IMG/VR virus record: IMGVR_UViG_3300006153_000012
Span: 1-64,000 of that record
Strand: one strand, 5' to 3'
Source: a virus
Lineage: Duplodnaviria > Caudoviricetes
DNA length: 64,000 bases
Shown one piece after another: positions 16,379 to 35,040 of this stretch. The number at the start of each line of letters is the position of its first letter. The stretch's first letter is position 1. The position numbers and the translations under genes are program-made. The notes under the pieces were generated by a model, which searched no databases, had not been told where the DNA came from, and saw nothing but the letters and a program-made list of their open reading frames with translations.

Positions 16379-18757
16379 TTAATATTTTTTCATTTCCTGT
16401 AAAATCCTGTTATGTGCACGCATGCTTACTATATCCGAGAAATCTTCTGGGTTCTGTACGCCATGTACATGGATTCCGCCGACATCGACATTCATGTTTC
16501 GGTTCATGGTGCTGTTATTGTTGATTACCTCGACAGCCTTCTCCATGGCTTCTGCCGCATTATTCATGGCATATGCTGGCCTCATAAATGCGTCCCTGTT
16601 CGCACTGAAATATTCCTCGAATTTCTTTATCATTTGATATTCCCTGTCATCTGGTGTGAGTGGGTACAACGTTCTTCCATCCTTAGTGATGATGGTTCCA
16701 TCCACCAGTTTGACATTTCCATTCTCATAAGTCTTGAGCACTTCACCCTTATTTTCCATGATCTGTTCGGTCTGCTCTTCATTGAAAATAACGGTGCCTT
16801 TTGGAAGATCCCCCATGGTTGGCTCAGTGGTAAGTTCCGCCCTGCCGTCAGGGTACACGGTAAGTTCCGGCTGCCCGTACTCAGAACGCAGGGCATTCCT
16901 CTCGTCATTTGGAAGTCCTTTATACCCTCCCGTCCCTCTTGCGAACGCCTTTCCGACCGTGCCATCTGCATGCGCCGGGACTGTGCTGCCGGACACGGCG
17001 ACACTGACGGACGGCATCCCGGATGACTCCAGCGTCTCTGAGAGGGCACGCAGGGAGTTTGCCGCGGCCGCACACTGATCCTGTATGGAGTCCGCCATCT
17101 TCCTGACCATCTCGACAATCTTCTCACATATGGACTGGATGGATCTGTCGCCGTCAGTCGCGAAGTCACTGAAGGCTTTCAGCCACGGGTCTTCCAGCTT
17201 GGATGCCACCTCATCCCCGCCTGTCTGCATGATGTCTATGATGCTCCCGCCGTTGCCGCCCGGCTCGGAGCCGCCGCTGTTCCTGATGGGCTTGCTGCTC
17301 CCGGCTTTCTTCCCGGGGTCACTGCCGTCACCGCCGCCCACACCGATGATCTCCGCAATGCGCGCCTGCATTTCCTCCCATGCGGGAAGGTACTCCTCCG
17401 TTATCTTCCTGATCTGGTCATCGAAGGACGTGTTGCCGATGTCCAGTGCCTGGCTCAGGCTGTCCATCTGCCCCTGTATCGTTGTGACCGCATCGGATAT
17501 GGCTGACGCAAGGCCAATGAACCCTGTCCCTGCCGGTGCCGCGTCACCATCTGTCATGGCGTTCCCATCCCCCATGGACGCGGCAGTGCCTATGACGGCG
17601 GAGAAGTCTATCTGTCTGAATTCAGCACATTTCAGCGCAATGTCGCCGAAGGCGGATGCAGTGTCCCTCAGCTTCTGCACATACCCCTCATCCCCGATTT
17701 CCGGGAACTTTATGCTGCCAAGCTGGGTGACAACCTCATCAACCAGCTTCTTCAGCTTCTCCAGTTCCGTGCCCAGCGGCGCGATGCTCTCGGACATGCC
17801 AGACACGCCCTCCTGTATACCGCCCACTGCGGCGGATGCCTCCCCTGCGCTTGTGGCAAGTCCTGCCGCAGAGTCCTTCACGTCACTGACGCTGTTGCTA
17901 AGACCGTCCAGTGTGACTGCCCCAAGGTTCTCAAACGCACCCTTGGTTGACTCAAGGTAGCTGATGGAGTCCGCGCTGACCCCGGAAAGCCTTGACAGCT
18001 GCTCCAGGATGCCGTCATTGCCACGGCTCATGTCCGCAAGGATGCCCACATAGGCGGCCTTCAGCTTCTCAAATTCCTCCTGTGAGCCGCTTAAAAGCGC
18101 GTCCATGTTGATGCCGAGTTCAGAAAGTGCCGCTTCCATCTGTGCATTCTCAAGCAGGTCTGTCAGTTCCTCGAACTGTGACTTGTAGTCCTCCATGCCC
18201 TTTATCATGGCATCGTAGCGTTGCTCCTCTTTGGCGATGATGTCGTCATAATGTTTATTGACTTTCTCGGCTTCCTTATCCAGTAAGTCAATTTTGTCCT
18301 GACGCAGTTCCTTCTCCAGTTCCAGATAGTCTATTTCCTTCTCAATTTTGGAAATGTCAATTTCGAGTTTTATATCCTCCACTTCCTGCTTCGCGTCACG
18401 GATGCCTGACGTGTCAGCCTGGTATGACATCTGGCCGTCCTTGTAGACGAGATCCGTCCTCTGGTTCTGCATACGCTGCAGGTCGTATTCCGCTTTCTGC
18501 AGGTCAAGGGAACGTTTCCGTTCTTCGTTTGCGTCCTGCATCGCCTTGATCTCTTTTTCCTTGGCCTCTATCTGTTCCTCGATGCCCTCAATCTCGGTTT
18601 CATACTGCTCCTTCTTGGCTTCTATTTCCTCAAGCCTTGCGTCACGTTCCGCTTCAATGGCAGATATCGCGGCATCCTTTTCATCATTGATTGCGTCTAT
18701 GCGCTTGTCAATCTGCCTCGTGATGTAGCTGAAGGCGGACTCATAGAGGGATTTCAT
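16379..18757 (-). CDS. Tape measure protein, exon 3 (792 aa)
   Basis: Coiled-coil and Gly/Ala-rich TMP C-terminus; starts ATGAAATCC directly after the intron terminal G. Confidence 0.85.
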   Translation of the reverse strand: MKSLYESAFSYITRQIDKRIDAINDEKDAAISAIEAERDARLEEIEAKKEQYETEIEGIEEQIEAKEKEIKAMQDANEERKRSLDLQKAEYDLQRMQNQRTDLVYKDGQMSYQADTSGIRDAKQEVEDIKLEIDISKIEKEIDYLELEKELRQDKIDLLDKEAEKVNKHYDDIIAKEEQRYDAMIKGMEDYKSQFEELTDLLENAQMEAALSELGINMDALLSGSQEEFEKLKAAYVGILADMSRGNDGILEQLSRLSGVSADSISYLESTKGAFENLGAVTLDGLSNSVSDVKDSAAGLATSAGEASAAVGGIQEGVSGMSESIAPLGTELEKLKKLVDEVVTQLGSIKFPEIGDEGYVQKLRDTASAFGDIALKCAEFRQIDFSAVIGTAASMGDGNAMTDGDAAPAGTGFIGLASAISDAVTTIQGQMDSLSQALDIGNTSFDDQIRKITEEYLPAWEEMQARIAEIIGVGGGDGSDPGKKAGSSKPIRNSGGSEPGGNGGSIIDIMQTGGDEVASKLEDPWLKAFSDFATDGDRSIQSICEKIVEMVRKMADSIQDQCAAAANSLRALSETLESSGMPSVSVAVSGSTVPAHADGTVGKAFARGTGGYKGLPNDERNALRSEYGQPELTVYPDGRAELTTEPTMGDLPKGTVIFNEEQTEQIMENKGEVLKTYENGNVKLVDGTIITKDGRTLYPLTPDDREYQMIKKFEEYFSANRDAFMRPAYAMNNAAEAMEKAVEVINNNSTMNRNMNVDVGGIHVHGVQNPEDFSDIVSMRAHNRILQEMKKY

Positions 18758-18999
18758 CAAATCTGTTACTTTCACCATGACTGGCTACTGACTATGTGCA
18801 TACATAGCGGATAGTCATTTCTGGCTATCTTTCACATTTCATTTATTTGGGATTATTGTGTGAGTTCGGACTGGATCTTCACCCTCCCTGATAGGGTAGG
18901 GGAGTAACGGAACCTTATATGCTTTGTATCACAATATAAGGTATTACAGTCTCTACGGATTCTGGTTTTAGATAATACTAATTTAAAAATAAATATACC

Positions 19000-19161
19000 C
19001 AAAAAACACCTACCGAAGTAGATGTTTTTGGAACCATAACCTTGTTATGGTTTTCTACATTTGATTTGCCATTAATCTATGCCTCGCATAGACATGCTTT
19101 TGGTAAACTCTTTCGTTCACCTTAGTAATATTATACTACTACATCTCTGATAATATGTCAA
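19000..19161 (-). ncRNA. Putative small RNA downstream of the PemK-like gene
   Basis: TTGACA-N17-TAGTAT promoter, two hairpins, then a UUCG-loop hairpin with U-run. Confidence 0.45.
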
Positions 19162-19162
19162 T

Positions 19163-19903
19163 TCAAAATTTAAAACTCAGATTTTTATTTATAGCCTTTA
19201 TTATGTTATCAAAACATTTATCAGTAGCAATGCCCAAACATTTGCTGTCGATTCGCTTCCTGTCTATCGCCCGTATATGCATTACATTTACGAATCCATA
19301 TATCCCGTTGCTGTTTCCCTCTAACCTTAAAGGAATTTCATAAAAATCTAAATATTTATTCTTTATCGCGCCATCTTTTACTATCTCAATATAGTATTTT
19401 CGTTTTACATCATCCCATTTGACTTTTTTTTGGTGTGTTGTCACTGGGGCAATAATTGTGATATTGCCTTTAATGTTCCCTGTATTGTTTTGTAATATGA
19501 TTACTGGCCTACGTCCATTTTGCTCACTGCCAATATTGTCTCCTAAATGGGCATAAAAAATTTCTTTTTGAGCGACCGTATATTTTCTTGTGCTTAAGTT
19601 TATATTTCTTGTTCTATTTACCCAAGCCAAATAATCTATATTCTTCTGCATTTTTTCTAAATAGATTGCCTTATTAGTTGTTTTTACAAACATTTCTCTT
19701 GATAATTTTCTGAATTCCTTTATTAATCTATTCTCAAGATTTTTACACTCCCGGTCATCTTTCATAATAAAAAGAATTCTATTTATTATGTCTGATAATG
19801 TTGACTCGACCATTTCCTTTTCAGCAGAATTGTTCCTGTCAATAGAATTTGTAAATTTACGTAATATGCGGATTAAATCATCATATAATTTTTCAATATC
19901 CAT
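19163..19903 (-). CDS. PemK/MazF-family toxin with N-terminal helical extension
   Basis: IFYAHLGDNIGSEQNGRRPVIILQN...IAPVT; likely start MDIEK. Confidence 0.85.
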   Translation of the reverse strand: MDIEKLYDDLIRILRKFTNSIDRNNSAEKEMVESTLSDIINRILFIMKDDRECKNLENRLIKEFRKLSREMFVKTTNKAIYLEKMQKNIDYLAWVNRTRNINLSTRKYTVAQKEIFYAHLGDNIGSEQNGRRPVIILQNNTGNIKGNITIIAPVTTHQKKVKWDDVKRKYYIEIVKDGAIKNKYLDFYEIPLRLEGNSNGIYGFVNVMHIRAIDRKRIDSKCLGIATDKCFDNIIKAINKNLSFKF

Positions 19904-20108
19904 TAGTATTCCCCAATCATCAGCATTATAATATCCCATTATATACCAATAATTGACATAATACTACAAGAACATACATTCTAAAACCTTTATTATTATT
20001 ATTATATCTAAAACCAGTCTTTCCTCGGTCTTAACGTTCCCATACGCCTTTAACCGATATAGTTACTTTTCATTATGCTGCATTACTGCAGCAGATGGCA
20101 TGTAATCC

Positions 20109-23084
20109 ACCATCAAGGTACTGATGCTCATACTTCTCATATTCCTTCAGGTATTTCTCTTTGTCGCGGAAATACTTGAGATAGAGCCTGCGGAGTGCAT
20201 CCAGATATTGTTTTTCCGTGATTTTCCCACGGTCTTTCAGATCATCAAGGTCTTTTAGTTCCTTCTCGAATGACTCTAAATATGCATCTGCTGCTTCCTT
20301 GCCGGCTTTCCCTGCTGACTTTTTACCACCTCCGGCATTGGAGAAATCAACTTTAGGCTCATAATTGATCTTGCCTGCTGATTCTTTGATAAGCGCCTGT
20401 AACATTGCCGCCCGTGCAATCTTGAATCCTATGTCCAAAGGATCAATTGTGCCGCTTGCGACCTCCTGATAAATCTGCTCCAATTCAGTCAGATATTTAA
20501 TCACTTCACCCGTATAACCTGCATTCTCCGCAAGGGTTCTCAGGTTCGCAACCTCGCCATCTGTGTTCATAATCTGCATGTTGTACAGTTCCTTCTGGAA
20601 CGTGAGCATCGCAATCGCCTGTGACGCATTTTCAGTAGACACCATCTCATTTGCAAATGCGGCAATCTGTTCTTCTGTGGCTCTTGCAAGGTCAATCCCG
20701 GCTTCCTTCAATGCTTCCTTCAATGCCTCCGTGTTGCTTATCAAGGCTTCAAACGCCACCAATTCCTCATTGACAACACCCAAGTCTTCCAGTGCGGCTT
20801 TCAGTGTTTCAAAGTCCTCCGCGCCTGATAACGCCGCCTGTGTGATGGAAGCAGCAAGGGAGTCAAATGCAGTCTCTACATCCTGCTCCGTTGACTCAGA
20901 ATTGCGCAATACCCTGACAAAATCCTCATAGGAAGAGTAGTCTACATCAAGATTTAATCCTTCTGGGTCAGACATCTCGTCTAGTTTAGACTTAATTGCG
21001 TCACATGTTGATAGGATGTCTATGCTGTTTAGTGCGAACTCATCATCCGTGAAGATGGACTGGTATGCGGATTTCAGGGAATCGAATGCGGGTTTCAGCT
21101 GGGTGTTTAGCTGATCGATGGTGGAAGAGATGGATGAAATGGGGTTTTCAATGTTCGATGTTGAATCTTGAACTTCTTTAATCTTAGCAACAAGTTCATC
21201 CCAAGATAGAAGAGTACCCTCTGGAACTTCTACCTGTTCTGCCGCAATGTGCAGTTCTTCAAGTGTTAATTCTCCAACTTTGTCATCAAAATCATCTTGG
21301 AGTTTTTCTTTTACGTTGTTGATTAGTGGTTGGGTATCGTCTACTTTTGCTTGTAAATTAACAGAAATTGGGTGTTCTGAACCAAAATACTCTTGAACTT
21401 TAGCAATAGCTTCTAATAATTCACCAGAATTTAAACTCCCAGAATATATATTAGCTAAAGCTTCTGATACTTCTGAATCATTAATATTATTGATTGAGAA
21501 TAAGATATTACGTCTTAAATATTCACTAACAGCTTCCCAATCATTTTTATCAATGCCTTCTGGTAAACTTGACCAATCAAAATTGAAAAGTGTGTCTTGT
21601 ATTGCTTTTTGTAATCCACTATCTTCAATCTGATTGTAAGTAAACTCAGTCTGTAACCATGTATTTAAATATTGATTAATAGACGATGTTTCAGCTTCAA
21701 ACTGTTGCTCTGCATATTTTACATCGTCAGATGCCTTGTTAAATGCAGATACATAAGCATCTTTTATACCAGAAAGATTTGGTATATCACCACCATCTTC
21801 TAATTCCAGTTTATAACCAATGATTTGACCCATGCCATCTTTTAAATTTACTTGTTTTGCTGTTATACCTAATTTTTCAAGTAACTCTATATATTGACCA
21901 AGTTTTAATGCAACTGGATCTCCATTTGCATCTTTAGCATTTCCATTAATATCAAAAGCAGTATAAATCCCATATTTATTTATTTCTTCATATGCTCTTT
22001 GGATTTCATCTCTTGTCTTTTTAGCATCTTCTTTTTGTTTCTCTAAATCAGAAACATTATTAGAATAACCAGCAAATAAGTCTGGCATCTGTTTCATGAT
22101 TTCTTGATTTGCCAATACACGTTGTCTTTCAATTAAATCATCTAATGAACCAACGATAGTATCTACATCACCAGATAGATCAAGTATAGCAACACCATTT
22201 TCATCAAAATTCTTTGTTAATGAAGGATAAAGTGTTGATAACTGATTGCTTAACTCTAAAAATCTCTCATATTTTTCAGTAGAAAGATTTTTATTTTCAT
22301 TAGTTAGTAAATTAACTCCTTGGGCAAGTTCAGCATATTCTTTGGCAATTTCTTTAGTTTTTGATGAATTTTCACTAAATGTATAGTTTATTTCATCAAT
22401 TGCATTTTTGGCTTCTTCATAAGCTTCTTTTATTGCCTTAGCCGCTTTTTCTTGTTTAACCTTGTTTACTAACGCCGCACCACCACATAATGTTAATGCT
22501 GCTGTAATACTAGCAATAACAGGATGAGCCTGTGCAATAGTTAAAATACCAGTACCCAGTCCTTTTAGTGCAGTACCAGCACCTTTAATTTTAGCACCTA
22601 TACCTGCAAGTAAAGAAGCAGACTCTTTTTGGTTTGCTAGAGTAACACCAGCTTTTGCAGCAATTAAATTAGCTTCTGCCTGTGTTAATTTACCAGTAGC
22701 AACAAGTTCCTTTAATTTTGCGGCTGTCACAACATTGGTAGCCGTAGCCTCTGCCGTTTCAGAAGTGATAAGTCCAGTATTAATCAACAACGCTTCTGAT
22801 TGATCTTTATTTCTCTTTTTTGTTACGAGTATAGCATTAAGTTCAGCAGTAGTTAATTTGCCAGTAGAACCTAATAATTCTGCCTGTGATAAAATTGCCT
22901 GTTTCTGTGCAAGATTAAGTCCTTGTGTTGATAATACCAATTCTGCTTGCTTTGCGTTTAATCCTTTTAAAGCTGTTGCATATGCAGTTATATTTGTAGC
23001 ATTTAATTTCAAATTGCTGAGTTCGTTTATTTTTCTTCCAGCAATATAAACATCTTCCAAACTTTGTCTAATTGTTTTGAATAT
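20109..23084 (-). CDS. Tape measure protein, exon 2 (992 aa)
   Basis: Long helical Ala/Leu-rich ORF; no SD before its ATG at 23087; joins both neighbours in frame. Confidence 0.85.
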
Positions 23085-23165
23085 CATACTAATATATGTT
23101 ATACTTGTGGAGAGTATAACGTCCTCTTGTGGAGAGAGGATATTGATTCCCTTGTGGAGAGGGAA
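23071..23165 (-). repeat. 3' splice-site module copy 1 (restores TMP frame) with three CUCCACA-loop hairpins
   Basis: AGTATG|ATATTCAAAACAAT; loops at 23106, 23128 and 23153. Confidence 0.85.
23077..23105 (+). promoter_or_regulatory. Sigma-A-type promoter overlapping the splice-site module
   Basis: TTGAAT-N17-TATACT with extended TG. Confidence 0.65.
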
Positions 23166-23189
23166 ATTTATAATAGGAGATGTTTATTT

Positions 23190-23861
23190 ATGAAAAGAAA
23201 AATAATAAAAGTAACAATTTTGATTTTAATGTCTATTTCTATAACTGGATGCTCCAAGGCTAATTATCAAAAGGATGAATCATATGAAACAGATATTATT
23301 GGAACATATGAAATAAATGCCGAAGCTGATTCTGATAATAAAACTACTTATTACAAACAATATGTGTTAAATGACGATAATACATATAATTATGAAAGCA
23401 ATGTATTTGGCACAGATTCAAAGTCAAGCGGTAATTACACTATAAATAATGAAACAGAAAATATTCTCATAATTGATTTTGATATTATAAATAGTACATC
23501 TACCGATGAAGAATCAGTAAATATTAATTCTGCTAAACAATACAAAAAGGTTTATAAATATAAAAATATGCTTGGTGATATAATAGAAACGAAAGAGTTG
23601 CCAACATCCGAAATGTTTAATTACATAATACCGAATAAAACAGGAGGTGGCATGATATTTACTAAGGATGGTTATTATCATGCGTGTATTGATATTGATA
23701 ATTGCCAATGTGACTATGCAAAGGACACAAAATATATAAGAAAAGATAATATTATATATTTCAATATTAAAGGTTCTGGTACTGATAACTATTGGCAAAT
23801 TGCAGATTATGTAATCGATGATTATTTATTTACTCCAGAACTATATAAAGTGGAAGAGTAG
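23190..23861 (+). CDS. Lipoprotein (intron cargo)
   Basis: MKRKIIKVTILILMSISITGC signal peptide and lipobox; SD AGGAG. Confidence 0.8.
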   Translation: MKRKIIKVTILILMSISITGCSKANYQKDESYETDIIGTYEINAEADSDNKTTYYKQYVLNDDNTYNYESNVFGTDSKSSGNYTINNETENILIIDFDIINSTSTDEESVNINSAKQYKKVYKYKNMLGDIIETKELPTSEMFNYIIPNKTGGGMIFTKDGYYHACIDIDNCQCDYAKDTKYIRKDNIIYFNIKGSGTDNYWQIADYVIDDYLFTPELYKVEE

Positions 23862-24057
23862 TAGTATCATTTCATTCAATCATATAAATCACGTCCTTTC
23901 TAAATATTTTTATGAGTAAGATTACTCAATAGATATCACAATATCAATTATAATATCTATTCAATGATCTTGGCTTTGATGAAAATATGTTCTGGGTATC
24001 AAAAATATATAACTAATGATACAATAAATGTATCAATGTTTAGGAGGATATCATGCT

Positions 24058-25506
24058 ATGGCACGAAAGAAGAAAATTCTTAGTCCTACATATACAGAGT
24101 TAATTGTACCAACATATGATGCATTAAAGCAATTAGGAAATTCAGCTACTAATGAAGAGATTTATAATAAAATTATTGAAAATTTAAATTTGCCAGATGA
24201 TGTAATTCACGAACCGCATGGGAAAAATTTAGGCAGAGGTGAATTAGAATATCAACTTGCATGGGCAAGAACTTATTTAAAAAATTATGGTGTTATAAAA
24301 AGTATTAAAAGAGGTACATGGGAGATAGAACCATCTTTTATTGGAAATGTCCAATTAAATTATAGAGAAGTGATTGACTATACAGCGAATAAAAAGCAAC
24401 AATTAGATAATAATGTAGAAAATAATAGTGAAAATTTTCAAAATGAGGACGTTGATGATCTAACAGAGGATAACAAATATATTTCTGATGTTGAACAACC
24501 CGAAAATGCAAATTTATATATAAAAAGCCTGATTGACTCGTGGGAAACTAAAGATTTAAAAATACCTTTCTTTCAAAGAAAGTTTGTTTGGACTTTACGT
24601 CAAGCAAGTTTGTTTATTGAATCATTATTGTCTAATTTACCAATTCCAGCCCTTATGTTTTATAAAGATGCTGATGACTTTCAATATATAATAGATGGAC
24701 AACAACGAACAAAAAGTATTCTTTATTTTACAGGTGCAATAAAACTAGATGAAGTTGATGATGATAATAAAAAGTTTCTAAATTTTAGATTAATCGGATT
24801 ATCAGATGATAGTCCATATAAAAATAAAACATTTGCTGGACTTGATCCTTCTATAAGAAGAAAATTATTAAACCGCACATTGCCAATAACAACAGTCAAG
24901 GTAAATGATGATAGTGATTTGCCTAAAATCTTTGAAATTTTTCGTAGACTTAATACAGGAGGTACTCCTTTAACTAAGCAAGAAATACGAAATTGTATTT
25001 GTGCAGGTAATTTTAATGAATTTCTTATTGATTTAAATAAAAACAAAGAATGGCAATCATTTATTACCAGCGAGAACGATAGAAAAAGACAACGTGATGT
25101 TGAACTAATATTACGATTCTTTGCTTTATATGAAACATACAAACAATATAAAAGACCAATGGATGAATTTTTAACTTTGTATTTTGATGCACACAGAGAG
25201 ATTGGTGATATTGAAAAAGAAGAAAAGACTGCTCTTTTTAATGCTGTTGTTTCAGCTATATACAATAATTTAGGGAGAAGGCCCTTTCATATAAAAAATG
25301 GTTTAAATTCTGGTGTATGCGATTCTGTCATGGTTGCTTTTGCAAATAATATAAATAATATTCCGCTGGATATAAAAGATCGATTCTTTGCATTGACACA
25401 TAACGATGAATTTTATAAATATTGTGGCAAAAATATTAACGACAATGAATCTGTACAATGTAGGATACAAATTGCAACAGATTATCTTTTTGGTGATTCA
25501 GAATAA
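24058..25506 (+). CDS. Mrr N-terminal wHTH fused to DUF262 (GmrS/ParB-like) domain
   Basis: PTYTELIVP...LEYQLAWARTYLK...RGTWEI; IPFFQRKFVW, IIDGQQR, IFRRLNTGGTPL. Confidence 0.8.
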   Translation: MARKKKILSPTYTELIVPTYDALKQLGNSATNEEIYNKIIENLNLPDDVIHEPHGKNLGRGELEYQLAWARTYLKNYGVIKSIKRGTWEIEPSFIGNVQLNYREVIDYTANKKQQLDNNVENNSENFQNEDVDDLTEDNKYISDVEQPENANLYIKSLIDSWETKDLKIPFFQRKFVWTLRQASLFIESLLSNLPIPALMFYKDADDFQYIIDGQQRTKSILYFTGAIKLDEVDDDNKKFLNFRLIGLSDDSPYKNKTFAGLDPSIRRKLLNRTLPITTVKVNDDSDLPKIFEIFRRLNTGGTPLTKQEIRNCICAGNFNEFLIDLNKNKEWQSFITSENDRKRQRDVELILRFFALYETYKQYKRPMDEFLTLYFDAHREIGDIEKEEKTALFNAVVSAIYNNLGRRPFHIKNGLNSGVCDSVMVAFANNINNIPLDIKDRFFALTHNDEFYKYCGKNINDNESVQCRIQIATDYLFGDSE

Positions 25507-25576
25507 ATTATTAAAGGCTCATCTATTCAGATGGGTCTTTTTTTAATACTCAAAACATTTAGTTAAATCATTTGTT

Positions 25577-25693
25577 ATTGTTTTGAATATCATACTAATT
25601 TGTGCTATACTTGTGGAGAGCATAACGTCCTCTTGTGGAGAGTAGTGTTTTGCGTCATGTGGAGTGACGCTGTATCTAATTGTGGAGATTAGA
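25577..25693 (-). repeat. 3' splice-site module copy 2 with four CUCCACA-loop hairpins
   Basis: AGTATG|ATATTCAAAACAAT at 25591/25590; loops at 25612, 25634, 25658 and 25681. Confidence 0.85.
25583..25611 (+). promoter_or_regulatory. Sigma-A-type promoter overlapping module copy 2
   Basis: TTGAAT-N17-TATACT. Confidence 0.6.
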
Positions 25694-25756
25694 CATTGTG
25701 TTTTGTGGATATATTTGGTATAATTTTACTAAAAATATATAATCAAGGGGATACAT

Positions 25757-26419
25757 ATGATTTTCAAAAAGACATTACAAATTGTTTTGGTGTTCTTATT
25801 AAGTATATTATTATGCTCATGTTCTTCTAATAATAATTTAAATGATGATTTTATCAGTTTTCATGAACAACAATTAGACCAAAAAGTTTATAAAACATCT
25901 CAGGATCAAAATTTTGTAATTAGCAATTTAGACAAGGAAAAAGTTCCTGAACATTCAAAAGTTGTTTTAATGGTATTTCTTGGGAATGAAACCAAATACC
26001 AGGACGAAGTATATAAATGGTTACAATTATCAATAGATGAAAGAAAAGCTGATTTAAGGGAATGTGCAGAGTTAGTGATTAAATATGCTCAAGATAATAA
26101 CTGGAAAAATGATTATTATCTTTATGTCAATTTGACAGATATTTATGGTGTTTGTAGTATAATATATGATTATGAAAAAGATGAAATTTGGATACCAAAT
26201 TGCGAAAATACTTTTATTGAAATGTATGAAAAATTTAATACATTCTACGAAAAAGATTTAGAAGAAACACAAGATGGAATTGATTTTCTTGTAGATAATA
26301 ATTTAGCATACATCAAACATAATCAAGTGGAATATAGAAATATTTTTAGCTATACAGTATATATAGATAACGAAGGAAATTTTAAAAGTTATGGCGAAGA
26401 TAATTCAATAAAATATTAA
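25757..26419 (+). CDS. Lipoprotein (intron cargo)
   Basis: Signal peptide ending LLCSC; SD AGGGG. Confidence 0.8.
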   Translation: MIFKKTLQIVLVFLLSILLCSCSSNNNLNDDFISFHEQQLDQKVYKTSQDQNFVISNLDKEKVPEHSKVVLMVFLGNETKYQDEVYKWLQLSIDERKADLRECAELVIKYAQDNNWKNDYYLYVNLTDIYGVCSIIYDYEKDEIWIPNCENTFIEMYEKFNTFYEKDLEETQDGIDFLVDNNLAYIKHNQVEYRNIFSYTVYIDNEGNFKSYGEDNSIKY

Positions 26420-26752
26420 ACAATCATAAAAATCACATCCTTTCAATTTTTTAGAGCGATAAGACTACTCTATGAATTGCACTAGAGATTAATTCAGTTT
26501 ATACGGTAGTCTTATTTGGTTATTAAATTGACTAAGTGGTAAGATGTTATATATTGCTTTATAATATATGGTAGAAAATAGAATGAATCAAAACTTGATT
26601 GAATATTTATTGATTATTAAGGAGTGGCATTGTAATAAGTGCAGTTCGGATTTTTAGGTAATTAATATTACATCCTTTCTATGAATAGAAGGGTAGAGAA
26701 TATGAAAAACAGGATACTTGATACAATATCCTGTTTAATAGAAGTTATTTAA

Positions 26753-27394
26753 TTAATTATTTTTACTATTTAAAGAATTTATAATCTGTTTCATCATTAA
26801 ATATTGCTTATTTTTTTCACATAAATTCCAAATGAATTGATATTTTTCTCTGCCAAATTGAAATCTTAGATCCAAGTCATATATAGCTGTATCTAAATCA
26901 TTAAAATCAATTATCATACATTGTAAAAATGTATTTATTGTTTTTTCTACGATTTTAATTTTTTCTCTATCCCATTCCTTATATTCTTTAATAATATTAT
27001 TATACAATATATGACGATTAAACGTATATTCTATTAAGTCATAAAATTTATCAATATTCATTTCTCGTAAAAAAACAGTTTGCACTTCAATAATTTTTAT
27101 ATTATTAAAACTTTTTAATATATTTTTCCAAAAAGTGATTTCGTTATCAGAAGTTATTTCATCTAATTCATCAATAAAATTTTCTAAATTTACTGATGTA
27201 TATATTTTTTTAAATGCGTATAAAAAATCATAAAATAAATCTAATGTTTTATAATCTAACATAATTTTCTCATTCTCAATTATATCATTGAAATTGTGAG
27301 ACACATTCTTTAAGAGAAATAACTTATCAATAACATCGTCAACTTTATCCTTTTGGGCATCTGATGTTATATATTTTAATAATTTGTTTTCCAT
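26753..27394 (-). CDS. Hypothetical helical protein (gene 3 of nitrilase operon)
   Basis: 213 aa, overlaps the upstream gene, very AT-rich. Confidence 0.7.
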   Translation of the reverse strand: MENKLLKYITSDAQKDKVDDVIDKLFLLKNVSHNFNDIIENEKIMLDYKTLDLFYDFLYAFKKIYTSVNLENFIDELDEITSDNEITFWKNILKSFNNIKIIEVQTVFLREMNIDKFYDLIEYTFNRHILYNNIIKEYKEWDREKIKIVEKTINTFLQCMIIDFNDLDTAIYDLDLRFQFGREKYQFIWNLCEKNKQYLMMKQIINSLNSKNN

Positions 27395-28230
27395 GGTTTA
27401 CCTCCAATCCAATTACTGTCATCTGAGAAATGTGCAATATTTTGATAGTAACTTTTTTCTTTATCTAGCAAATATGTCAATTTATTCAAATTATAATTTG
27501 CACTCGCAGAATTTAAATGAGGCTTTTTAAGTTTATGATTATCTTGATTGGATTTACTTAATATATATTCAATTAAATATTCTAAAACTTCATTTACTTT
27601 TCCTTCATTGTAATTTAAAGTCAGGTCATCAAAGTCAATATTCTTAATCATGAAAAATGCATAAAGGTTTTTACCTTTAGGAGATAAAGAATATAATACA
27701 GTGTCATTTACTTGACGTGTCATAACTAAATCATAAATATGTGACGATGGAGCAAAGAAATCTACATTAGAATCAAAAAGTTCCTTTAATTCTGAATTTG
27801 AAGCTTCAGTATGGTCATAAAGGTATTTATAAAAATTTAGTTTAGACGGATTGCTAAAGTATTTTTTACATTCATTTACTTTGATAATATAATTTTCATT
27901 AATATCCAATACTCTAATAACTAATTTAAAAAAGTGTAATATATTGTATTGCTTTAATGCAGACATCAAATTTGGTATTTCTGATTCTCTACAAAAGGAT
28001 ATAATTATGTTATATTGTCTTCTGGATTCATTTGAAATATCCTTTTTTAATTGTTTAATTTTCTCAAGTTCTTCATAATTTCCAGCATCATTCTTTATGT
28101 TATTTATAAGAGAAGATAAAATATTTTCATAAGTAGATTCTATATGCATATCGAAATTAGAATCATTAAAATTAGAAATATTATTCTCACTGTTTTTTAT
28201 ATAGCCTAATAATTCATCAATTTGATTCAT
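27376..28230 (-). CDS. Hypothetical protein with possible winged-helix (gene 2 of nitrilase operon)
   Basis: LYDHTEASNSELKELF...VLYSLSPKGKNLY resembles a wHTH. Confidence 0.65.
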   Translation of the reverse strand: MNQIDELLGYIKNSENNISNFNDSNFDMHIESTYENILSSLINNIKNDAGNYEELEKIKQLKKDISNESRRQYNIIISFCRESEIPNLMSALKQYNILHFFKLVIRVLDINENYIIKVNECKKYFSNPSKLNFYKYLYDHTEASNSELKELFDSNVDFFAPSSHIYDLVMTRQVNDTVLYSLSPKGKNLYAFFMIKNIDFDDLTLNYNEGKVNEVLEYLIEYILSKSNQDNHKLKKPHLNSASANYNLNKLTYLLDKEKSYYQNIAHFSDDSNWIGGKPWKTNY

Positions 28231-28231
28231 A

Positions 28232-29779
28232 TCAACACCTCTTCATTTCATAAACATTTAAACTAACAATATTATTTTCAAAAAACAATTCTTCTAAATC
28301 AATATTAAAAATTCTGCCATTGCAAAAAGAATCACAATTTCTACATTCTTCATTAAATGTATAAAAAATTTTCCTATGGGAACGAGTTGTATTATCTTTT
28401 GAGGGTGTAATAATAAAACCAATTTTATTTTTATTTTCTATCTTTTCATTTAATGAATCTATATTTTCTTCTAAATGTTTTAAAGAAGAACATGTATTGC
28501 ACATAATAGTAGTGCAATGATATCGTTCTGAAAGGGTAGCAGCATTATTAGTAAGATCGTTTGAAGGGTTACATGCTGGCAATATTATAAAGTCACCTTG
28601 TAATATTCTTGTAAGATTCATATAGCAATCATCATCAATATCTTTGCATATATAAGTTAATATTCTTCCAAAATTATTAATATCTATTACATGTATATTG
28701 CAATCATGAATTAAGTGTTCACTAAAAATTATTTTTTCCTTAAAATCATGCGAAAAAAGAAAACTATCTAGCAAACATTTCTGTTCGACATTTGAACAGT
28801 TTTTTATAATTGTTTTAAAGTCATCTTCGGAATATTTTAAATCAAAAGGTATTTTCTTATAATATTGAAAAATTTCCATGCTTTCATAAAATACATGGCA
28901 TATATTATTTCTATTCTCCCAAACACTTCCACAAAAAACAAATTTAATGTCTTGTTCATGTAATTTAGAAATAATCGAATTAATTATCTTTTCTGTCATA
29001 AGCATTTCTGGAAATATAAGGAAGTCTATATTATCCGATAAATTTTCAATAAACTGATTACATCTTTCAATAATTTTCCCTTCAATATTATCTTTCATAT
29101 TGTTTATATTAAATTTCATATTTTCAGTATATGTAATGTTAAAAATGTCATGCAAATTAGTATTCAAAATCGGGCATATAGCAATTCTTAGTTCTTTCTT
29201 ATTGTAAATGCGATTTATAAAATCTTCATATTCAATTAACTCATGAATTGTTATATTATAATCATCATCAAAAATTATATAACTTTTCAATTTACTATTA
29301 ACCGATAAACTATCATATTTTTTTCTTTCTCTTAAATAATTATTTTTATATTCTTCTTTATATATACTGTTGAAATCTTCTCGATAATTAGATAATAAAA
29401 CGGGATAAATTTTTATCTTTTTATTATATATTTCGTTAAGGCTTTTATATGTTTTAAATTGATCATCTAAATAAGTTGAATTTCTATAATTATAAATTTC
29501 ACATGAATCAATTGATATCAATAAACAATAATATTCTGTAGTGGATAAAGGTTTATAATTTAATGATATTAATATTGCCTGTTTTAAATATTTAAACGCA
29601 TAACAAGGACTGAATTGTTTATCTTCTAAATATTTATTTAAAATTTTATTGAAAATGTCCATGGTAGATTTGTCGTATACATTATTTATATCAAAATTTT
29701 TATCCTCAATTATATGTGCATAGCATATTGCCATGATATCATATATGTTTCTTGCAGACTCAAGTTCTTTGGTAAACAT
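28232..29779 (-). CDS. Protein with C-terminal carbon-nitrogen hydrolase (nitrilase) domain
   Basis: FLIFPEML (E), YYKKIP (K), TYICKD (C) triad; likely start MFTKE after GGGGG. Confidence 0.7.
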   Translation of the reverse strand: MFTKELESARNIYDIMAICYAHIIEDKNFDINNVYDKSTMDIFNKILNKYLEDKQFSPCYAFKYLKQAILISLNYKPLSTTEYYCLLISIDSCEIYNYRNSTYLDDQFKTYKSLNEIYNKKIKIYPVLLSNYREDFNSIYKEEYKNNYLRERKKYDSLSVNSKLKSYIIFDDDYNITIHELIEYEDFINRIYNKKELRIAICPILNTNLHDIFNITYTENMKFNINNMKDNIEGKIIERCNQFIENLSDNIDFLIFPEMLMTEKIINSIISKLHEQDIKFVFCGSVWENRNNICHVFYESMEIFQYYKKIPFDLKYSEDDFKTIIKNCSNVEQKCLLDSFLFSHDFKEKIIFSEHLIHDCNIHVIDINNFGRILTYICKDIDDDCYMNLTRILQGDFIILPACNPSNDLTNNAATLSERYHCTTIMCNTCSSLKHLEENIDSLNEKIENKNKIGFIITPSKDNTTRSHRKIFYTFNEECRNCDSFCNGRIFNIDLEELFFENNIVSLNVYEMKRC

Positions 29780-29903
29780 AATATCCCCCTTCATTCTATA
29801 TTTATCTATTAAAATTATAATATACAAATTCAATTATTGGAAGAAACATATGTTTGAATATGGTAAAATTTGGAATTTAATTGCAACTATGCACACTTTG
29901 ATA

Positions 29904-29915
29904 GAACTTATGTTC
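29904..29915. promoter_or_regulatory. LexA (SOS) box
   Basis: Perfect GAAC-TTAT-GTTC between divergent genes; second variant AAACATATGTTT at 29844. Confidence 0.65.
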
Positions 29916-30000
29916 TGCTTTGAGATATAGTTTATATCAATAATTGAGATATGTCAATACTGTATAGGCAGTATTGTAACAATAAGGGCGGTATTTAAAC

Positions 30001-30294
30001 ATGATTGATTGGAGTAACTTTGAAAATAAATTACAGGAACGTGGCAGGAGAGCAGAACTATCACGTCAAACAGGCATATCTACCGGCAACATACGAGACT
30101 GGTTCAATCCTGATAAACCAGCACAGCCAAGTGCGGATGCTCTTGTTAAGATATCAAAAGCCCTTGATTGCTCCGTAGACTACCTGCTTGGGCTTACTGA
30201 TGTTGAAAAGAGAGCAACAAATAAATCAAACATCATCCCAATTCCAATAGTGAAGCAAAAGGCTGCCGCTGGACTTGGGATACAAACCAACTGA
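30001..30294 (+). CDS. XRE/CI-type HTH repressor, truncated before the S24 peptidase domain
   Basis: HTH (ELSRQTGISTGNIRDW...SVDYLLG) followed by IPIV..KAAAG then stop. Confidence 0.7.
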   Translation: MIDWSNFENKLQERGRRAELSRQTGISTGNIRDWFNPDKPAQPSADALVKISKALDCSVDYLLGLTDVEKRATNKSNIIPIPIVKQKAAAGLGIQTN

Positions 30295-30300
30295 ACTGTT

Positions 30301-30349
30301 AATTGTTTTGAATATCATACTTATAAATTTTGCAACTTGTGGAGAATTG
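30301..30349 (-). repeat. 3' splice-site module copy 3 with one CUCCACA hairpin
   Basis: AGTATG|ATATTCAAAACAAT at 30316/30315; loop at 30338. Confidence 0.8.
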
Positions 30350-30549
30350 AATGTAGATTTTTATTTGAATCAGTAAATATTATTAACTCACTTATCAACC
30401 TTACAAAAACAATATTATTTTCGATGGATTTTCCCGTAGAAATATGGTATACTAATTCTTGCATATTGTTGGAGTGTACCGCACTTCATTATAACCACTC
30501 ATTACTCACCAAAGTTTGGGTGGTTATTTTAAAAGAAGGGAACAGTGCT

Positions 30550-30759
30550 ATGGATAGCAAAATGATTGTTGACTCAATAAATATTTTGTGTAAAATAAAT
30601 AATATTTCAATATCTCAATTAGAAAAAGATTTAAACTTTAAGCCGTCATTAATTGACAGTTGGAACAATTCATTACCTACTCTTGATGAAATTGTGGATA
30701 TAGCTAATTATTTTGAAGTATCATTGGATGATTTAATAAAAAATAAAATTAAAAAATGA
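30550..30759 (+). CDS. Small XRE-family HTH protein
   Basis: ISISQLEKDLNF...IVDIANYFEVSLDDL; SD AAGGG. Confidence 0.75.
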   Translation: MDSKMIVDSINILCKINNISISQLEKDLNFKPSLIDSWNNSLPTLDEIVDIANYFEVSLDDLIKNKIKK

Positions 30760-30810: not shown

Positions 30811-31803
30811 TTATGCTGTCCTAATCATATTTCTCCAGTAATCAAGCCTACCGCGCACATTCTCAGGACTGCTTGTTCCTGACTGTACATATTGCTTATA
30901 ATCGTTATTTGTTTCGTATTCATTAAGAAACTTATTGACCAATTCAACCAACTTTGAGAATGATTTCTTGTCCTTAATAATCCGGTATCCGCTATATAAT
31001 ACCATTGGAATTGATGTGACAGGTATTTTAATCTCATCAAATGCTTCGTCAAATTTATCCATTGATTCTTTTAACACGTCAACTTTTGATAGACTTTCAT
31101 CAGCGTAATCTTGCACGAAAACATCAATGTCTTTTGCTCTGAATGATGTAAAATCTCTCTCCTGATTGCTGCAAATAAGCATTAATGTTTGAATTATTAG
31201 ATCTCTATCTGTACCGTTTTTCCTTTGTGTAGGTGTAACTAACTTATCCATAAAGGGATGGTTTGCCAAAGAATATACAGCATCGCTGAATGCATCGGAC
31301 TCATGTACAATACGAAGCAATTTCCCGTTGAGGGGCTTGGAAGTGTTCTGCCGCCTGAACATTTCCTTTACCTCATTATCGGTATAATCAGACAATGTAC
31401 AGAACTCTAAGCTGCAGGCAAGGAGGGTTGATTGCACTTCTTCATCAAGTTTTTTGAATTTTTTGCCTGCTAATTCATATTTGTTTTCTACAATCTCACC
31501 TTCTTCTTTGCTCCGGATGATAATATTGGGCGTGTCCTTGCTAAGGGCAAACTCATTATTTATATAACTGATACATGTTGAAGTCCTTTGGGAACCATCA
31601 AGTGTGTATGAAGTGCCATCTTCATCAACAACATAAATAGGATTCACAGGAAAGCCTGAAAGCAGACTGTGTATCAGCAAAGACTTCATTTTGGGACTCC
31701 ATTGTCCAATAGGACGCTGAAGTTTATGTGAAAAAGAAATATTCCCCTTTTTGTGTTGATTGGTAATCCACTGTAAAGTACGTTCTTTACTGGATGTCTT
31801 CAT
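30811..31803 (-). CDS. DUF262 (ParB/Srx-like) domain protein
   Basis: LQRPIGQW, SLL.GFP, LDGSQR, MFRRQN. Confidence 0.75.
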   Translation of the reverse strand: MKTSSKERTLQWITNQHKKGNISFSHKLQRPIGQWSPKMKSLLIHSLLSGFPVNPIYVVDEDGTSYTLDGSQRTSTCISYINNEFALSKDTPNIIIRSKEEGEIVENKYELAGKKFKKLDEEVQSTLLACSLEFCTLSDYTDNEVKEMFRRQNTSKPLNGKLLRIVHESDAFSDAVYSLANHPFMDKLVTPTQRKNGTDRDLIIQTLMLICSNQERDFTSFRAKDIDVFVQDYADESLSKVDVLKESMDKFDEAFDEIKIPVTSIPMVLYSGYRIIKDKKSFSKLVELVNKFLNEYETNNDYKQYVQSGTSSPENVRGRLDYWRNMIRTA

Positions 31804-32006
31804 TCTGCTACCTCCGAAAATATTTTGAATTTTGATATTTTCAGAGTAGCACATTTATAAATTATTGTAAATAATTTTTTGTGAAAAATTGTGTGAAATA
31901 AGATTATTTTAATTAATATATCTTTATATTTGACAATATATGTCAGTATGTTACAATATCAATTACAGCACTCAGACTTGATTCTGTAACCACCTCCAAA
32001 AAATAA

Positions 32007-32071
32007 CTCGCCTCCACGCGAGATAGGCTTGCTCCACACAAGCCACCGACATAGTATGATGTTCAAAACAA
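32007..32071 (+). repeat. Inverted copy of the 3' splice-site module with two CUCCAC(A) hairpins
   Basis: AGTATG|ATGTTCAAAACAA at 32058/32059; loops at 32012 and 32032; promoter-like TTGACA...TACAAT at 31930-31957. Confidence 0.75.
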
Positions 32072-32093
32072 CAATGATTATCGGAGGTGGCTC

Positions 32094-32312
32094 ATGGGAA
32101 ATATAATTAAAAGTGCTGTTGAGTGTGAATTTGCGTATGGGATGGTATGCGTATTAGCCAGTTTTATATTCTTTTACGCCGCCATTCGATTTGTAGTACC
32201 TTACATATATAAGATTGTATGTAAATTATGCAATACATTGGTGAAGTACAAAGATATTCACACAAAAGCCAATGTTAAGGATGTCTCGTTTGAGACAGAA
32301 TTACATCGGTAA
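32094..32312 (+). CDS. Small membrane protein
   Basis: SD GGAGGTGG, one hydrophobic helix. Confidence 0.6.
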   Translation: MGNIIKSAVECEFAYGMVCVLASFIFFYAAIRFVVPYIYKIVCKLCNTLVKYKDIHTKANVKDVSFETELHR

Positions 32313-33043
32313 TTTTGGACTACTGGATTCCACTCTGGTAGTCCTTTGGCTTGTCTTGTTTATATGATTCTCCGTTTCTTCCCTACGGCTAGGAGAAATC
32401 CTTACATTATTCTATTCCTTCTATAATAAGTATAGTTGCTATTAAGAAATAGAAGAGTAGCATCACTCTTTTGGTTCATGCTTATATTATTAGGCTCCAC
32501 CCTAATAATATACAATCTATTTCGGTTCTATCTTCTTATCAACTCCGATAGTGAGAGTTCCAACAAATGTGTAAGACGTAGGAGATAAGATTCCTAACAG
32601 CAATTACTAACCGCTACACTCGGCAAAGTCTGGATCACTCCTTGCAGCATTAGGAATTTCACCTAATGCCACCTGCCCTGATGCTCTCTGAGATTAGCAC
32701 TCATCTAGTGAGATTTCCATCCTTAAAAGGATTTCTGTACATTCTGTACGCTGTCATCTGCTCGTTATTGTCAAATATCACATTGTAACTATAGCCGTTT
32801 GTGTTGCCACTTAGGAGAGTAGTGATATTTGTATACCAACTTTCAAGACCATTAATTGCTAAATGGTGTATCCATAATGCAGAGGGATACCATATCTGCT
32901 ATACTTATAAAAAGTATACGGTGGTTAATTCCACACGAGATTCAATTGTGTATTTCACAAAGGATAATATTTAAAACTTATTCTTTGAATAAGAACCAAT
33001 ATTACAACAGGCATATTCGATATGAGGGATTACGTTTTACCCT
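32310..33043 (-). ncRNA. Large structured RNA, putative ribozyme core of the giant intron
   Basis: ~730 nt with no credible ORF and many stems (e.g. GCAUUAGG/CCUAAUGC, 12-bp stem with GUGGAG loop), starting at the 5' splice site. Confidence 0.7.
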
Positions 33044-34978: not shown

Positions 34979-35040
34979 ATATTTCAGGACTCCTTTCAAA
35001 TAAAAAACTCCCATGCTCTATCATGAGAGTTTATGATTCT

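Follow-up and report, generated by a model that had tools for sequence, protein, structure and literature searches.

The 64,000-nucleotide stretch of DNA analysed here (the window) comes from a mouse-gut phage whose tape-measure protein (TMP) gene is interrupted at 33044/23084 by 9,959 nt, and a 20-mer that spans the distal border of this insert recurs inside it. What are these repeats, and which of them might serve to restore the gene? The two parts of the gene and the putative upstream junction are as follows.

33045–35014, minus strand: TMP exon 1 (N-terminal part, ending ...GFKNTG), which matches phrog_4211 profile positions 322–949 and PF10145
33007–33044, minus strand: putative 5′ splice site (after T33044) and internal guide, with GAAUAU at 33018–33013 (P10) and GCCUGU at 33012–33007 (P1)
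20073–23084, minus strand: TMP exon 2 (starting IFKTIRQ...), which matches phrog_4211 profile positions 948–1552 and continues the exon 1 frame over 33044/23084

The exon-1-like and exon-2-like parts are contiguous in the uninterrupted TMPs P0025 and P0070. Interruption at the same codon is found in L001, L002, L006, L007, L009, G003, G004 and G005, and L004 is intact. The guide GAAUAU-GCCUGU is complementary to both exon ends, giving 6 bp of P1 (ACAGGU/GCCUGU, with U·G at the junction) and 6 bp of P10 (AUAUUC/GAAUAU) in the window. P1 occurs in three compensating versions: that of the window, GUCGGU/GCCGAC in eight loci, and AGCGGU/GCCGCU in L052. Potential P10 pairing amounts to 6–12 bp across the window, G003, G005, L012, L013 and L017 (the phages compared for this helix, L007 having been left out), with 9–12 of the first 12 exon positions pairable with the guide in the last five and one compensatory change in G005. 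AGUAUG ends 11 of 11 terminal acceptors. By sequence, then, the group I features of a P1 with U·G at the splice site, a terminal G and a P10 are all present. The region behind the guide contains two structured segments.

32480–33006, minus strand: ORF-poor structured region, the putative ribozyme core, with a hairpin whose loop is AUCUUAUC and a GUGGAG-loop hairpin near 32512
32362–32479, minus strand: conserved structured block of ~110 nt, with blastn matches to L016, L011, L001, L002 and L064

The window's ribozyme core is atypical. Rfam gave no intron match in the window, its relatives or a neighbouring 1.3-kb insert, and no RF00028 at any threshold; the core is without the P4/P6 motifs of most relatives, and no canonical P7 is assignable in it. 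A GAUAAGA further downstream is paired to the loop AUCUUAUC, and in 10 relatives both this pairing and the hairpin stem covary. Canonical group I R/S elements, with covarying P7 and P3, are seen in a sister core that occupies the same site and uses the same acceptor (L016/G004 versus L011), and the ~110-nt block stands behind differing core types in relatives.

The exact 20-mer AGTATGATATTCAAAACAAT occurs three times, always on the minus strand (23071–23090, 25577–25596 and 30302–30321, with the terminal G of AGUAUG at 23085, 25591 and 30316, respectively). Only ~0.05 chance matches are expected for a 20-mer, and four copies were reached in 0 of 100 shuffles. The fourth copy, inverted and with two mismatches, lies at 32053–32072 on the plus strand; it was absent from the initial annotation, whose three direct copies and their positions we confirm. 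The motif is restricted to 23–32 kb of the window and, in the 78-kb record, to this locus alone. As that annotation also had it, the most distal copy alone restores TMP: the frame past G23085 opens into the 1003-codon C-terminal TMP ORF (IFKTIRQSLEDVY...), and the frames past G25591 and G30316 read IFKTITNDLTKCFEY and IFKTINSSVGLYPKSSGSLLLHYWNWDDV, each followed by a stop. Copies 1 and 2 are near-identical across ~70 nt (23071–23140 versus 25577–25645), and the distal flanks of two lipoprotein genes have a common ~60-nt linker (~78% identity), so the homology reported at both ends of the lipoprotein blocks is real. Each copy also delimits a block of accessory genes, in agreement with the initial annotation.

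The 20-mers sit in longer acceptor units, made up of one to four hairpins (loop always CUCCACA, stems free to vary), an A/U linker, and AGUAUG/AUAUUCAAAACA. Among 42 distinct unit hairpins, 272 of 287 pairs are Watson-Crick; the loop is constant and the stems are unrelated. Past AGUAUG, conservation runs 12–14 nt further, and these nucleotides are complementary to the guide beside the 5′ junction. This anatomy supports the earlier proposal that the repeats are copies of a 3′-splice-site-like module.

23071–23165, minus strand: acceptor unit 1 (terminal, presumed functional), three CUCCACA-loop hairpins, linker, and AGUAUG with terminal G 23085
25543–25695, minus strand: acceptor unit 2 (internal), hairpin array 25602–25695, terminal G 25591 and a 15-codon stub
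30302–30350, minus strand: acceptor unit 3 (internal), one hairpin CAAUU-CUCCACA-AGUUG, terminal G 30316 and a 29-codon stub tail
31930–32347, plus strand: inverted acceptor module in a transcription unit of its own, with a promoter-like site (31930–31957), two CUCCAC-loop hairpins and the 20-mer copy at 32053–32072

In the inverted module the 20-mer copy is followed on the plus strand by a ribosome binding site (RBS), a 72-aa ORF (orf72, 32094–32312) and a terminator (32317–32344). The product of orf72 is 83% identical in L001, G002, G004 and G005, and the core is always its neighbour. The inverted copy could pair with each acceptor over 18 of its 20 positions and doubles as the orf72 leader; it is not present in L007 and G003. 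Between this module and exon 2 lie the cargo genes.

30811–31854, minus strand: DUF262/NsnA-like gene (PF03235, PADLOC NsnA), terminator 30780–30761, conserved in G002–G005
30001–30759, plus strand: two HTH (Cro/C1-type) genes (PF13443/PF01381), one either side of unit 3
26753–29833, minus strand: three co-oriented cargo genes (533, 284 and 213 aa), function not assigned, terminator 26736–26707
25757–26475, plus strand: lipoprotein 2 gene (25757–26419; signal peptide and Cys) and its distal conserved linker (26420–26475)
24028–25506, plus strand: Mrr_N plus GmrSD_N / NsnA / PD-T4-2_A-like gene (492 aa), from domain and PADLOC matches
23190–23930, plus strand: lipoprotein 1 gene (23190–23861) and its distal conserved linker (23875–23930), with homologues in L063 and L064

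The 533-, 284- and 213-aa proteins have no Pfam, PHROG or PADLOC match, and a protein-atlas search returned unnamed families only. Three terminator-like hairpins and several opposite-strand genes stand between the core and the acceptors, so cis-splicing would require read-through transcription.

Comparison with related phages of Lachnospiraceae is informative in understanding the array. Their inserts, at the same codon, run from 4.6 to 23.5 kb with one to four acceptor units and differing cargo (complete lengths are 4,624 nt in L007, 9,959 in the window, 14,356 in G004, 15,509 in G005 and 23,530 in G003); the short relatives L006 and L009 (0.85–1 kb) have a single ORF. Even the close relatives L063 and L064, whose exon 2 is 89–94% identical in nucleotide sequence and in which unit 1 of the window is also terminal, have different cargo and different unit numbers, and unit order is not alike in G003 and L017. 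Cassettes of the window are found in other positions elsewhere: lipoprotein 2 (88% aa identity, and 91% nt identity over 865 nt) belongs to the terminal cassette of G004/L018, and the GmrSD-like gene (85% aa identity) lies between other acceptor units in L017. Internal units homologous to unit 3 occur in L019/G005, L063 and G002. The stubs behind internal copies resemble the first 10–15 codons of the real exon 2 in other phages. What lies between the fixed codon and exon 2 is thus variable cargo with one to four modules; invariant content with a single acceptor was not seen.

The recombination joints fall within the constant loop CTCTCCACAAG and within the 20-mer, a position that favours homologous recombination or gene conversion. 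The array of unit 2, for example, is chimeric, resembling the G004 terminal array on the left and unit 1 of the window on the right, joined inside the loop. The joints are those of ordinary homologous crossovers, at varying places in the loop repeat, and include a deletion between neighbouring loops. Single reverse-strand genes have been replaced between the conserved linker and the hairpin array, genes have been inserted, arrays permuted, and units have decayed. A conserved motif thus borders variable genes and has the joints inside it, as with the PeSLs discussed below. The data therefore support modular exchange of cargo by gain, loss and shuffling, and to judge from the joints the exchange looks like homologous recombination at conserved modules rather than integron-type site-specific capture. 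The initial annotation had the intron growing by repeated capture of units of cargo plus 3′ end. Its modules and variable cargo hold up, but the units are smaller and messier, and modular gain was accompanied by loss and shuffling instead of one-way growth. Its term "integron-like" serves as an analogy only. Like integrons, the locus has tandem arrays of promiscuous cargo, each with structured repeat ends, whose number and order vary among relatives; unlike them, it has no integrase, attI/attC sites or common promoter that we could find, its orientation is mixed, and its joints look homologous.

We consider it on balance probable, from sequence comparison, that the 20-mers are the ends of portable 3′ modules of a putative intron, the last of which would be used while the internal ones are neutralised scars of exchange. 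Each module would comprise docking-type hairpins (CUCCACA loop), an A/U linker, AGUAUG with its terminal G, and the first 12–14 nt of exon 2, with which the guide of the intron could pair. The element would belong to a family of very large (4.6–23.5 kb), cargo-carrying, group-I-like introns, closest to IStrons, that split the TMP gene at one fixed codon in phages and prophages of Lachnospiraceae from the mouse gut. The G23085 module alone adjoins the real exon 2 and is the one expected to be used, 33044 to 23084 giving ...GFKNTG/IFKTIRQ.... The modules at G25591 and G30316 would be scars of DNA-level exchange among related phages, in which each incoming cargo segment arrived with a module of its own and a stub of donor exon 2, and the short homologies used in crossovers and gene conversion were the constant loop and the 20-mer. 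We infer that the RNA splices, in cis on a read-through late transcript, with the internal sites silent. Of the assembled contigs from public runs that align here, none spans a joined exon 1 and exon 2.

The internal modules appear to be neutralised rather than exploited. In unit 2 the first 12 nt (25590–25579) pair with 25557–25546, which would lock the exon-like bases into a local duplex of 12 bp. Masking helices of 7 bp or more occur in 9 of 13 internal and 0 of 11 terminal units (p = 0.0005; they span 7–13 bp across +1 to +12), and the AGUAUG hexamer, whose loss in relatives would also silence internal units, is changed in 5 of 13 and 0 of 11 (p = 0.03), including two losses of the terminal G; in both Fisher tests independence is overstated, as units across phages have common ancestry. 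Unit 3 of the window is neither locally masked nor mutated, which counts against this reading.

One reading would keep the internal units alive: an acceptor unit would be a portable "splice-me-out" tag, and the intron an open safe harbour for defence and moron genes, with the choice among tags made at the RNA level. Any segment ending in the tag could recombine into the tape-measure intron and the phage would survive. The selection system would then consist of the masking helices, the inverted tag carried by the orf72 mRNA, and GUGGAG/CUCCAC loop contacts; it would pick, in cis or in trans, the tag to be ligated to exon 1 and would couple cargo expression to splicing. We regard this as unlikely.

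It also seems improbable that the units are promoter plus stem-loop regulatory cassettes, like the PeSLs of T4-type phages, with TMP made as two polypeptides and the repeats mere recombination linkers. PeSL-mediated shuffling is documented (PMC2839356, PMC4122927), and TCCACA of the loop and TATGAT could be read as sigma-70-like −35 and −10 elements from which the gene behind each copy would be transcribed. The spacer between them is 15–19 nt in 21 of 22 units, unit 3 scores as promoter-like in a scan (9 of 12 positions), and the G to A changes in two decayed units create a perfect TATAAT. Many internal and inverted units moreover have, within 60–90 nt downstream, a small gene with an RBS (orf72 in five phages, a 70–90-aa family in L014, L017, G002 and G003). 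Terminal units, however, have no RBS and have their ATG inside the presumed −10, and the one remaining spacer is 24 nt. A promoter would not account for the 12–14 conserved, guide-complementary nucleotides past the "−10" or for the covariation of P1, the tails past the exon-1 junction are unconserved read-through, and the variable palindromic stems around the "−35" serve no promoter role. At orf72 a near-consensus promoter lies upstream of the hairpins, so that the unit is transcribed there as a leader, and promoter-like matches are not commoner in this A/T-rich region than in shuffles (88 versus 79).

The initial annotation further suggested that splice-site choice tunes the ratio of full-length to truncated TMP. 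Use of all three acceptors, whether to set this ratio or to switch tail assembly off, would fit the AGUAUG and six P10 bases retained by units 2 and 3, the unmasked state of unit 3, which would be transcribed first, and the internal unit of G004, which matches the guide better than its terminal unit does. We find it distinctly unlikely, since masking and hexamer changes fall preferentially on internal units and spare the terminal ones, the stub tails vary in length and sequence with no sign of coding constraint, and unit number and order vary in close relatives, which argues against a conserved regulatory circuit.

That the 20-mers and hairpins are sites at which a dedicated integron/attC-, shufflon- or IS200/IS605-like recombinase or transposase inserts, excises and inverts cassettes is highly unlikely: the constant asymmetric loops of the kind that single-strand-specific recombinases prefer, the one inverted copy among three direct ones, the conserved linker at the other end of the reverse-gene slot and the TnpB gene behind the core of one homologous insert (G003 only) are suggestive, but none of the cargo ORFs in the window gave a match to an integrase, invertase, TnpA or TnpB domain, the joints are of homologous type, and the inverted copy lies within a conserved transcription unit and is not a bare site.

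On the preferred reading of portable 3′ modules, the nearest known systems are the IStrons CdISt1 and BcISt1, in which IS200/IS605 or IS607 cargo is joined to a group I ribozyme (PMC4227781). In both, the ribozyme part is 5′, the distant 3′ splice site follows only after the cargo ORFs, and splicing (here presumed) preserves the function of the host gene; in the relative G003, TnpB comes directly behind the core. IStrons enclose their cargo in a long-range inverted-repeat stem and have a direct repeat of the 5′ arm near the 3′ end, and a possible counterpart in the window is its 20-nt inverted copy (18/20) beside the core, facing the acceptors. In contrast to a 1–2 kb transposase module, the inserts here hold unrelated genes amounting to 4–23 kb, which lie on both strands and have promoters and terminators of their own, and the cargo is NsnA/GmrSD-like, lipoprotein, HTH and unassigned genes, with neither TnpA nor TnpB in the window. 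Their 3′ end takes the form of a portable module, hairpins plus acceptor, that is repeated in one to four copies, and the element occupies a single conserved codon in a phage structural gene, not apparently scattered by transposition.

PeSLs (PMC2839356, PMC4122927) are likewise short conserved stem-loop motifs that flank variable accessory genes, provide homologies for shuffling between co-infecting relatives and have recombination joints inside them. They are, however, promoter-terminator motifs of intergenic hyperplastic regions, whereas the motif here has a 3′ splice-site signature complementary to a guide and its plastic region is inside an essential gene. The phage group I introns with homing-endonuclease ORFs (T4 td/nrdB, SPO1, Twort) resemble the element in their fixed site in a conserved phage gene, their P1/P10 guide pairing with U·G at the 5′ junction and terminal G, and the single ORF of the short relatives L006 and L009. 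The element differs in being 10–50 times larger, with multigene non-endonuclease cargo, in its repeated acceptor modules, and in a core that Rfam does not recognise.

If the inserts splice, they would to our knowledge be by far the largest group-I-type introns, and an intron in an essential late gene could act as a plastic site for accessory and defence-like phage genes. In the repeated acceptor modules the remodelling of this locus would be visibly recorded. They yield a rule, open to testing, on the features that a 3′ end needs in order to be recognised over 10–23 kb, and raise the question of how the ribozyme avoids the first acceptor it encounters. Relatives of the element are carried by cultured Lachnospiraceae lysogens, which opens these ideas to bench testing.

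The 20-nt repeats reported in the initial annotation are confirmed, and its interpretation is partly supported. They mark out a cargo array, modular and recombining, within a giant intron-like element in the tape-measure protein (TMP) gene. The exact sequence AGTATGATATTCAAAACAAT occurs three times, always on the minus strand, against a chance expectation of ~0.05, and neither the window nor the 78-kb virus record has the motif outside the TMP-insert locus.

Repeat copies, the G preceding each proposed junction and the frame that follows
23071-23090, minus strand: unit 1 (terminal); G at 23085; C-terminal TMP ORF, 1003 codons
25577-25596, minus strand: unit 2 (internal); G at 25591; IFKTITNDLTKCFEY, then a stop
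30302-30321, minus strand: unit 3 (internal); G at 30316; unrelated tail, 29 codons
32053-32072, inverted: fourth copy, 2 mismatches

The three direct copies and their terminal G positions reproduce exactly those of the initial annotation. It had also claimed that only the most distal acceptor restores TMP, and this holds, the frames after 25591 and 30316 being short stubs. The homologous flanks it reported for the two lipoprotein blocks are both present, with ~70 nt common to copies 1 and 2 at the proximal end and a linker of ~60 nt common to both lipoprotein genes at the distal end.

The ORFs at 33002-35014 and 20073-23087 (both minus strand) match positions 322-949 and 948-1552, respectively, of the TMP profile phrog_4211, and the two parts are contiguous in the distant uninterrupted TMPs P0025 and P0070. 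Joining 33044 to 23084 leaves the frame intact (...GFKNTG/IFKTIRQ..., the slash marking the joint). The same codon is interrupted in relatives L001, L002, L006, L007, L009 and G003-G005, and L004 is uninterrupted. A search of longer proteins found no uninterrupted close TMP homologs, intact TMPs all being distant; its best matches begin at the acceptor ATG, so those TMPs are likewise split. Thirty-odd nt past T33044 lies a putative guide, GAAUAU-GCCUGU, in which GCCUGU base-pairs with ACAGGU at the end of exon 1 (P1, with U.G at the junction) and GAAUAU is complementary to the first six bases past G23085 (P10). P1 takes three forms, all fully compensating (ACAGGU/GCCUGU for the window, GUCGGU/GCCGAC at eight loci and AGCGGU/GCCGCU in L052), and this compensation is the strongest evidence for an RNA guide that reads the junction. 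P10 covariation across genomes comes to a single compensating case, in G005. The terminal acceptor is not always the best guide match; in G004 an internal unit fits the guide better than the terminal one. Among Logan contigs from mouse-gut runs none joins 33044 to 23084, the sole RNA run consisting of fragments. Contig joints near the units (23095 to 23914, 25597 to 26618 and 25497 to 30296), with sides of 24-26 nt and unknown intervening letters, fit cassette variants among co-occurring relatives, and we weigh them neither way.

Two further interruptions lie in the N-terminal TMP part of L007 (10786-11943 and 12320-12862) and similarly in G003, and one of the two holds a 283-303-aa ORF. Directly past exon 2 of the window (region 18779-20072), between it and the long ORF 16379-18778, is a 258-aa ORF (19163-19939, minus strand) with a PemK/MazF-type toxin domain. 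P0001 gave no alignment with ORF 16379-18778 and so no confirmation that TMP continues there; the acceptor-starting ORF is unbroken for 1,819 aa in L063 and 1,770 aa in L064.

At least three types of core, the ORF-poor putative ribozyme region behind the 5′ junction, occupy the same TMP site. That of L016, G004 and L011 has canonical group I GUUCAGAGA-type R and GUAAUAGG-type S elements, a P3 of AAUCGU/ACGAUU, and a P7 of GAGUA/UACUC in one phage versus GAAUC/GGUUC in another. The second type has a covarying P4 (CGGG/UCCG versus CUGG/UCAG), GNRA-capped arms, and a hairpin with a stem that covaries in ten sequences and a loop, (A)UCUUAUC, that pairs with a downstream GAUAAGA. The window core has in common with this second type only the 3′ pseudoknot module, its P4-P6 and P7 being unassigned, and we regard the window element as a putative group-I-like intron. 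Rfam returned no intron family, whether at the gathering threshold or with E values of up to 10, when applied to the window, to five relatives, to two further loci and to the neighboring 1.3-kb insert; since it also misses the sister core with clear R and S elements, we read this as low sensitivity rather than absence. A TnpB gene immediately behind the core of G003 is a feature shared with IStrons and suggests a tie between them and this intron family. A long-range inverted-repeat stem surrounds the cargo of IStrons (PMC4227781).

The G003 TnpB (L046 3310-4413, plus strand, in a 23.5-kb insert) has OrfB_IS605 and a Cas12f-like TNB domain, and at 8541-8975 (minus strand) a group II intron maturase (GIIM) domain is present in a 144-aa protein encoded beside a decayed acceptor unit. 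A hairpin-rich block of ~110 nt (window 32362-32479, minus strand) is kept behind different core types (L016, L011, L001, L002 and L064), although L001 has it on the opposite side of the module that leads the 72-aa ORF orf72.

Read in the TMP sense, the insert contains three terminator-like hairpins (32022-32007, 30780-30761 and 26736-26707) along with several opposite-strand genes, so cis-splicing would require terminator-insensitive late transcription. Such transcription would be plausible for a temperate phage, given that G001 and G005 carry a provirus classification and that the hosts are Lachnospiraceae. At 32007-32022, again in the TMP sense, the inverted module's first hairpin, with its GUGGAG loop, leads into a U-run and scores as an intrinsic terminator, so that an exon-1 transcript could end just past a 20-nt antisense of the acceptor; the U-run is kept in G002, G004 and G005.

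An IMG/VR pattern scan yielded nine more loci, and full reading of these and further relatives gave about 25 acceptor units. Each has 1-5 hairpins with the constant loop CUCCACA (CCCAACA in L007) on stems unrelated in sequence (42 distinct hairpins, Watson-Crick at 272 of 287 stem positions), and its 3′ part runs from an A/U-rich linker of ~10 nt through AGUAUG to AUAUUCAAAACA. As a test of the folding strand, a symmetric count of G.U versus A.C among the 287 stem pairs gave 5 versus 1, numbers too small to decide. A reverse-strand gene for a Zn-ribbon or lipoprotein/membrane protein starts 95-185 nt upstream of nearly every unit. The candidate reverse-lipoprotein promoter TTGAAT-17-TATACT across the 20-mer was rejected; it is present in units 1 and 2 only and is not conserved in other phages. 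A reverse-strand Zn-ribbon gene lies immediately before the 3′ junction in L006 (~12400-12848) and L009 (~12280-12600) and is found among many acceptor-adjacent genes; it is present even in short 0.85-1 kb inserts without CUCCACA hairpins, and its partnership with the element may thus be ancestral. A conserved linker, GAAAGGAYGTGATTTWTATGATTG (window 23877-23900 and 26421-26444; also G004 and G005), sits at the distal end of the slot for reverse genes and includes an RBS and a 3-codon mini-ORF.

The main rival reading, or an adjunct one, is that relic units may have taken on a promoter role: the acceptor unit is sigma-70-like (TCCACA, 15-19 nt, TATGAT), an RBS and small gene stand behind several internal and inverted units, and TATAAT has arisen in two decayed units. 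Tuning of the ratio of full-length to truncated TMP by splice-site choice, as the initial annotation proposed, is not supported. In a comparison of 13 internal and 11 terminal units, whose shared ancestry makes the p-values optimistic, the AGUAUG hexamer is altered in 5/13 versus 0/11 (p=0.03), and the exon-like bases +1 to +12 are masked by a local 7-13 bp helix in 9/13 versus 0/11 (p=0.0005). The terminal G is missing in two internal units. Of the window's internal units, unit 2 has a 12-bp masking helix (25590-25579 with 25557-25546) and unit 3 has none. The direction of these differences argues that internal units are neutralized relics and not a tuned alternative-splicing device, and the repeats are probably not regulated alternative splice sites.

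Exchange of cassettes is the reading to which the relatives point. The expectation that cassette number would vary among related phages was borne out, and with insert length, units and cargo all differing, invariant content with a single acceptor is absent.

Complete TMP inserts and their acceptor units
L007: 4,624 nt; 1 unit
Window: 9,959 nt; 3 units and 1 inverted
G004: 14,356 nt; 2 units and 1 inverted
G005: 15,509 nt; 2 units and 1 inverted
G003: 23,530 nt; 4 units

Of the closest relatives by exon 2 (89-94% nucleotide identity), L063 has at least 2 units with cargo unlike the window's, and in L064 the insert is 4.8 kb long and a decayed unit is followed directly by lipoprotein 1. The terminal cassette of G004 matches the window's lipoprotein-2 segment (26444-25582) at 91% identity, and the window's GmrSD/NsnA-like gene recurs in L017 (85% amino acid identity) flanked by other units. 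One unit, terminal in L017 and L013, is internal in G003 and L014, and the converse is also seen. The stubs that follow internal units are similar to the opening 10-15 codons of real exon 2 in other phages (window unit 2 versus the L007 exon, 86% over 36 nt). Unit 2 matches the G004 terminal array as far as the loop CTCTCCACAAG and window unit 1 from that loop to base +14, a joint that leaves a third hairpin with unpairable arms. In L064 a deletion lies between two adjacent loops. The stretch from a conserved linker (GAAAGGAYGTGATTT..ATGATTG) to the hairpin array is also where single reverse genes are replaced and extra genes inserted. Overall, conserved modules look to be the places where homologous recombination and gene conversion occur, much as in the PeSLs of T4-type phages (PMC2839356), and the repeats are, as read from these comparisons, scars left where cassettes were exchanged at conserved acceptor modules. 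Growth by repeated capture of cargo plus 3′ end stands as to gain and unit exchange, but not as one-way growth, since loss, permutation and single-gene replacement are also seen. The proposed integron-like array is an analogy only, as the 20-mer repeats are not integron sites, the joints lie in loop repeats and the window's insert encodes no recombinase (an atlas search with its 533-aa cargo protein gave unnamed families and no recombinase).

Behind several internal units is a conserved 70-90-aa gene (MDIQNITNKE...; L014 5252-5400, L017 1356-1500, G002 24029-24180, G003 8998-9150). Near it the 12-mer ATATTCAAAACA occurs in 3 copies within ~85 nt, direct in the stub, inverted, and direct over the gene start, the later two flanking the RBS; the arrangement looks like an alternative-pairing switch. 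The phage genome also carries genes for tRNA-Ser(TGA) (57158-57246) and tRNA-Cys(GCA) (58390-58472), both on the minus strand.
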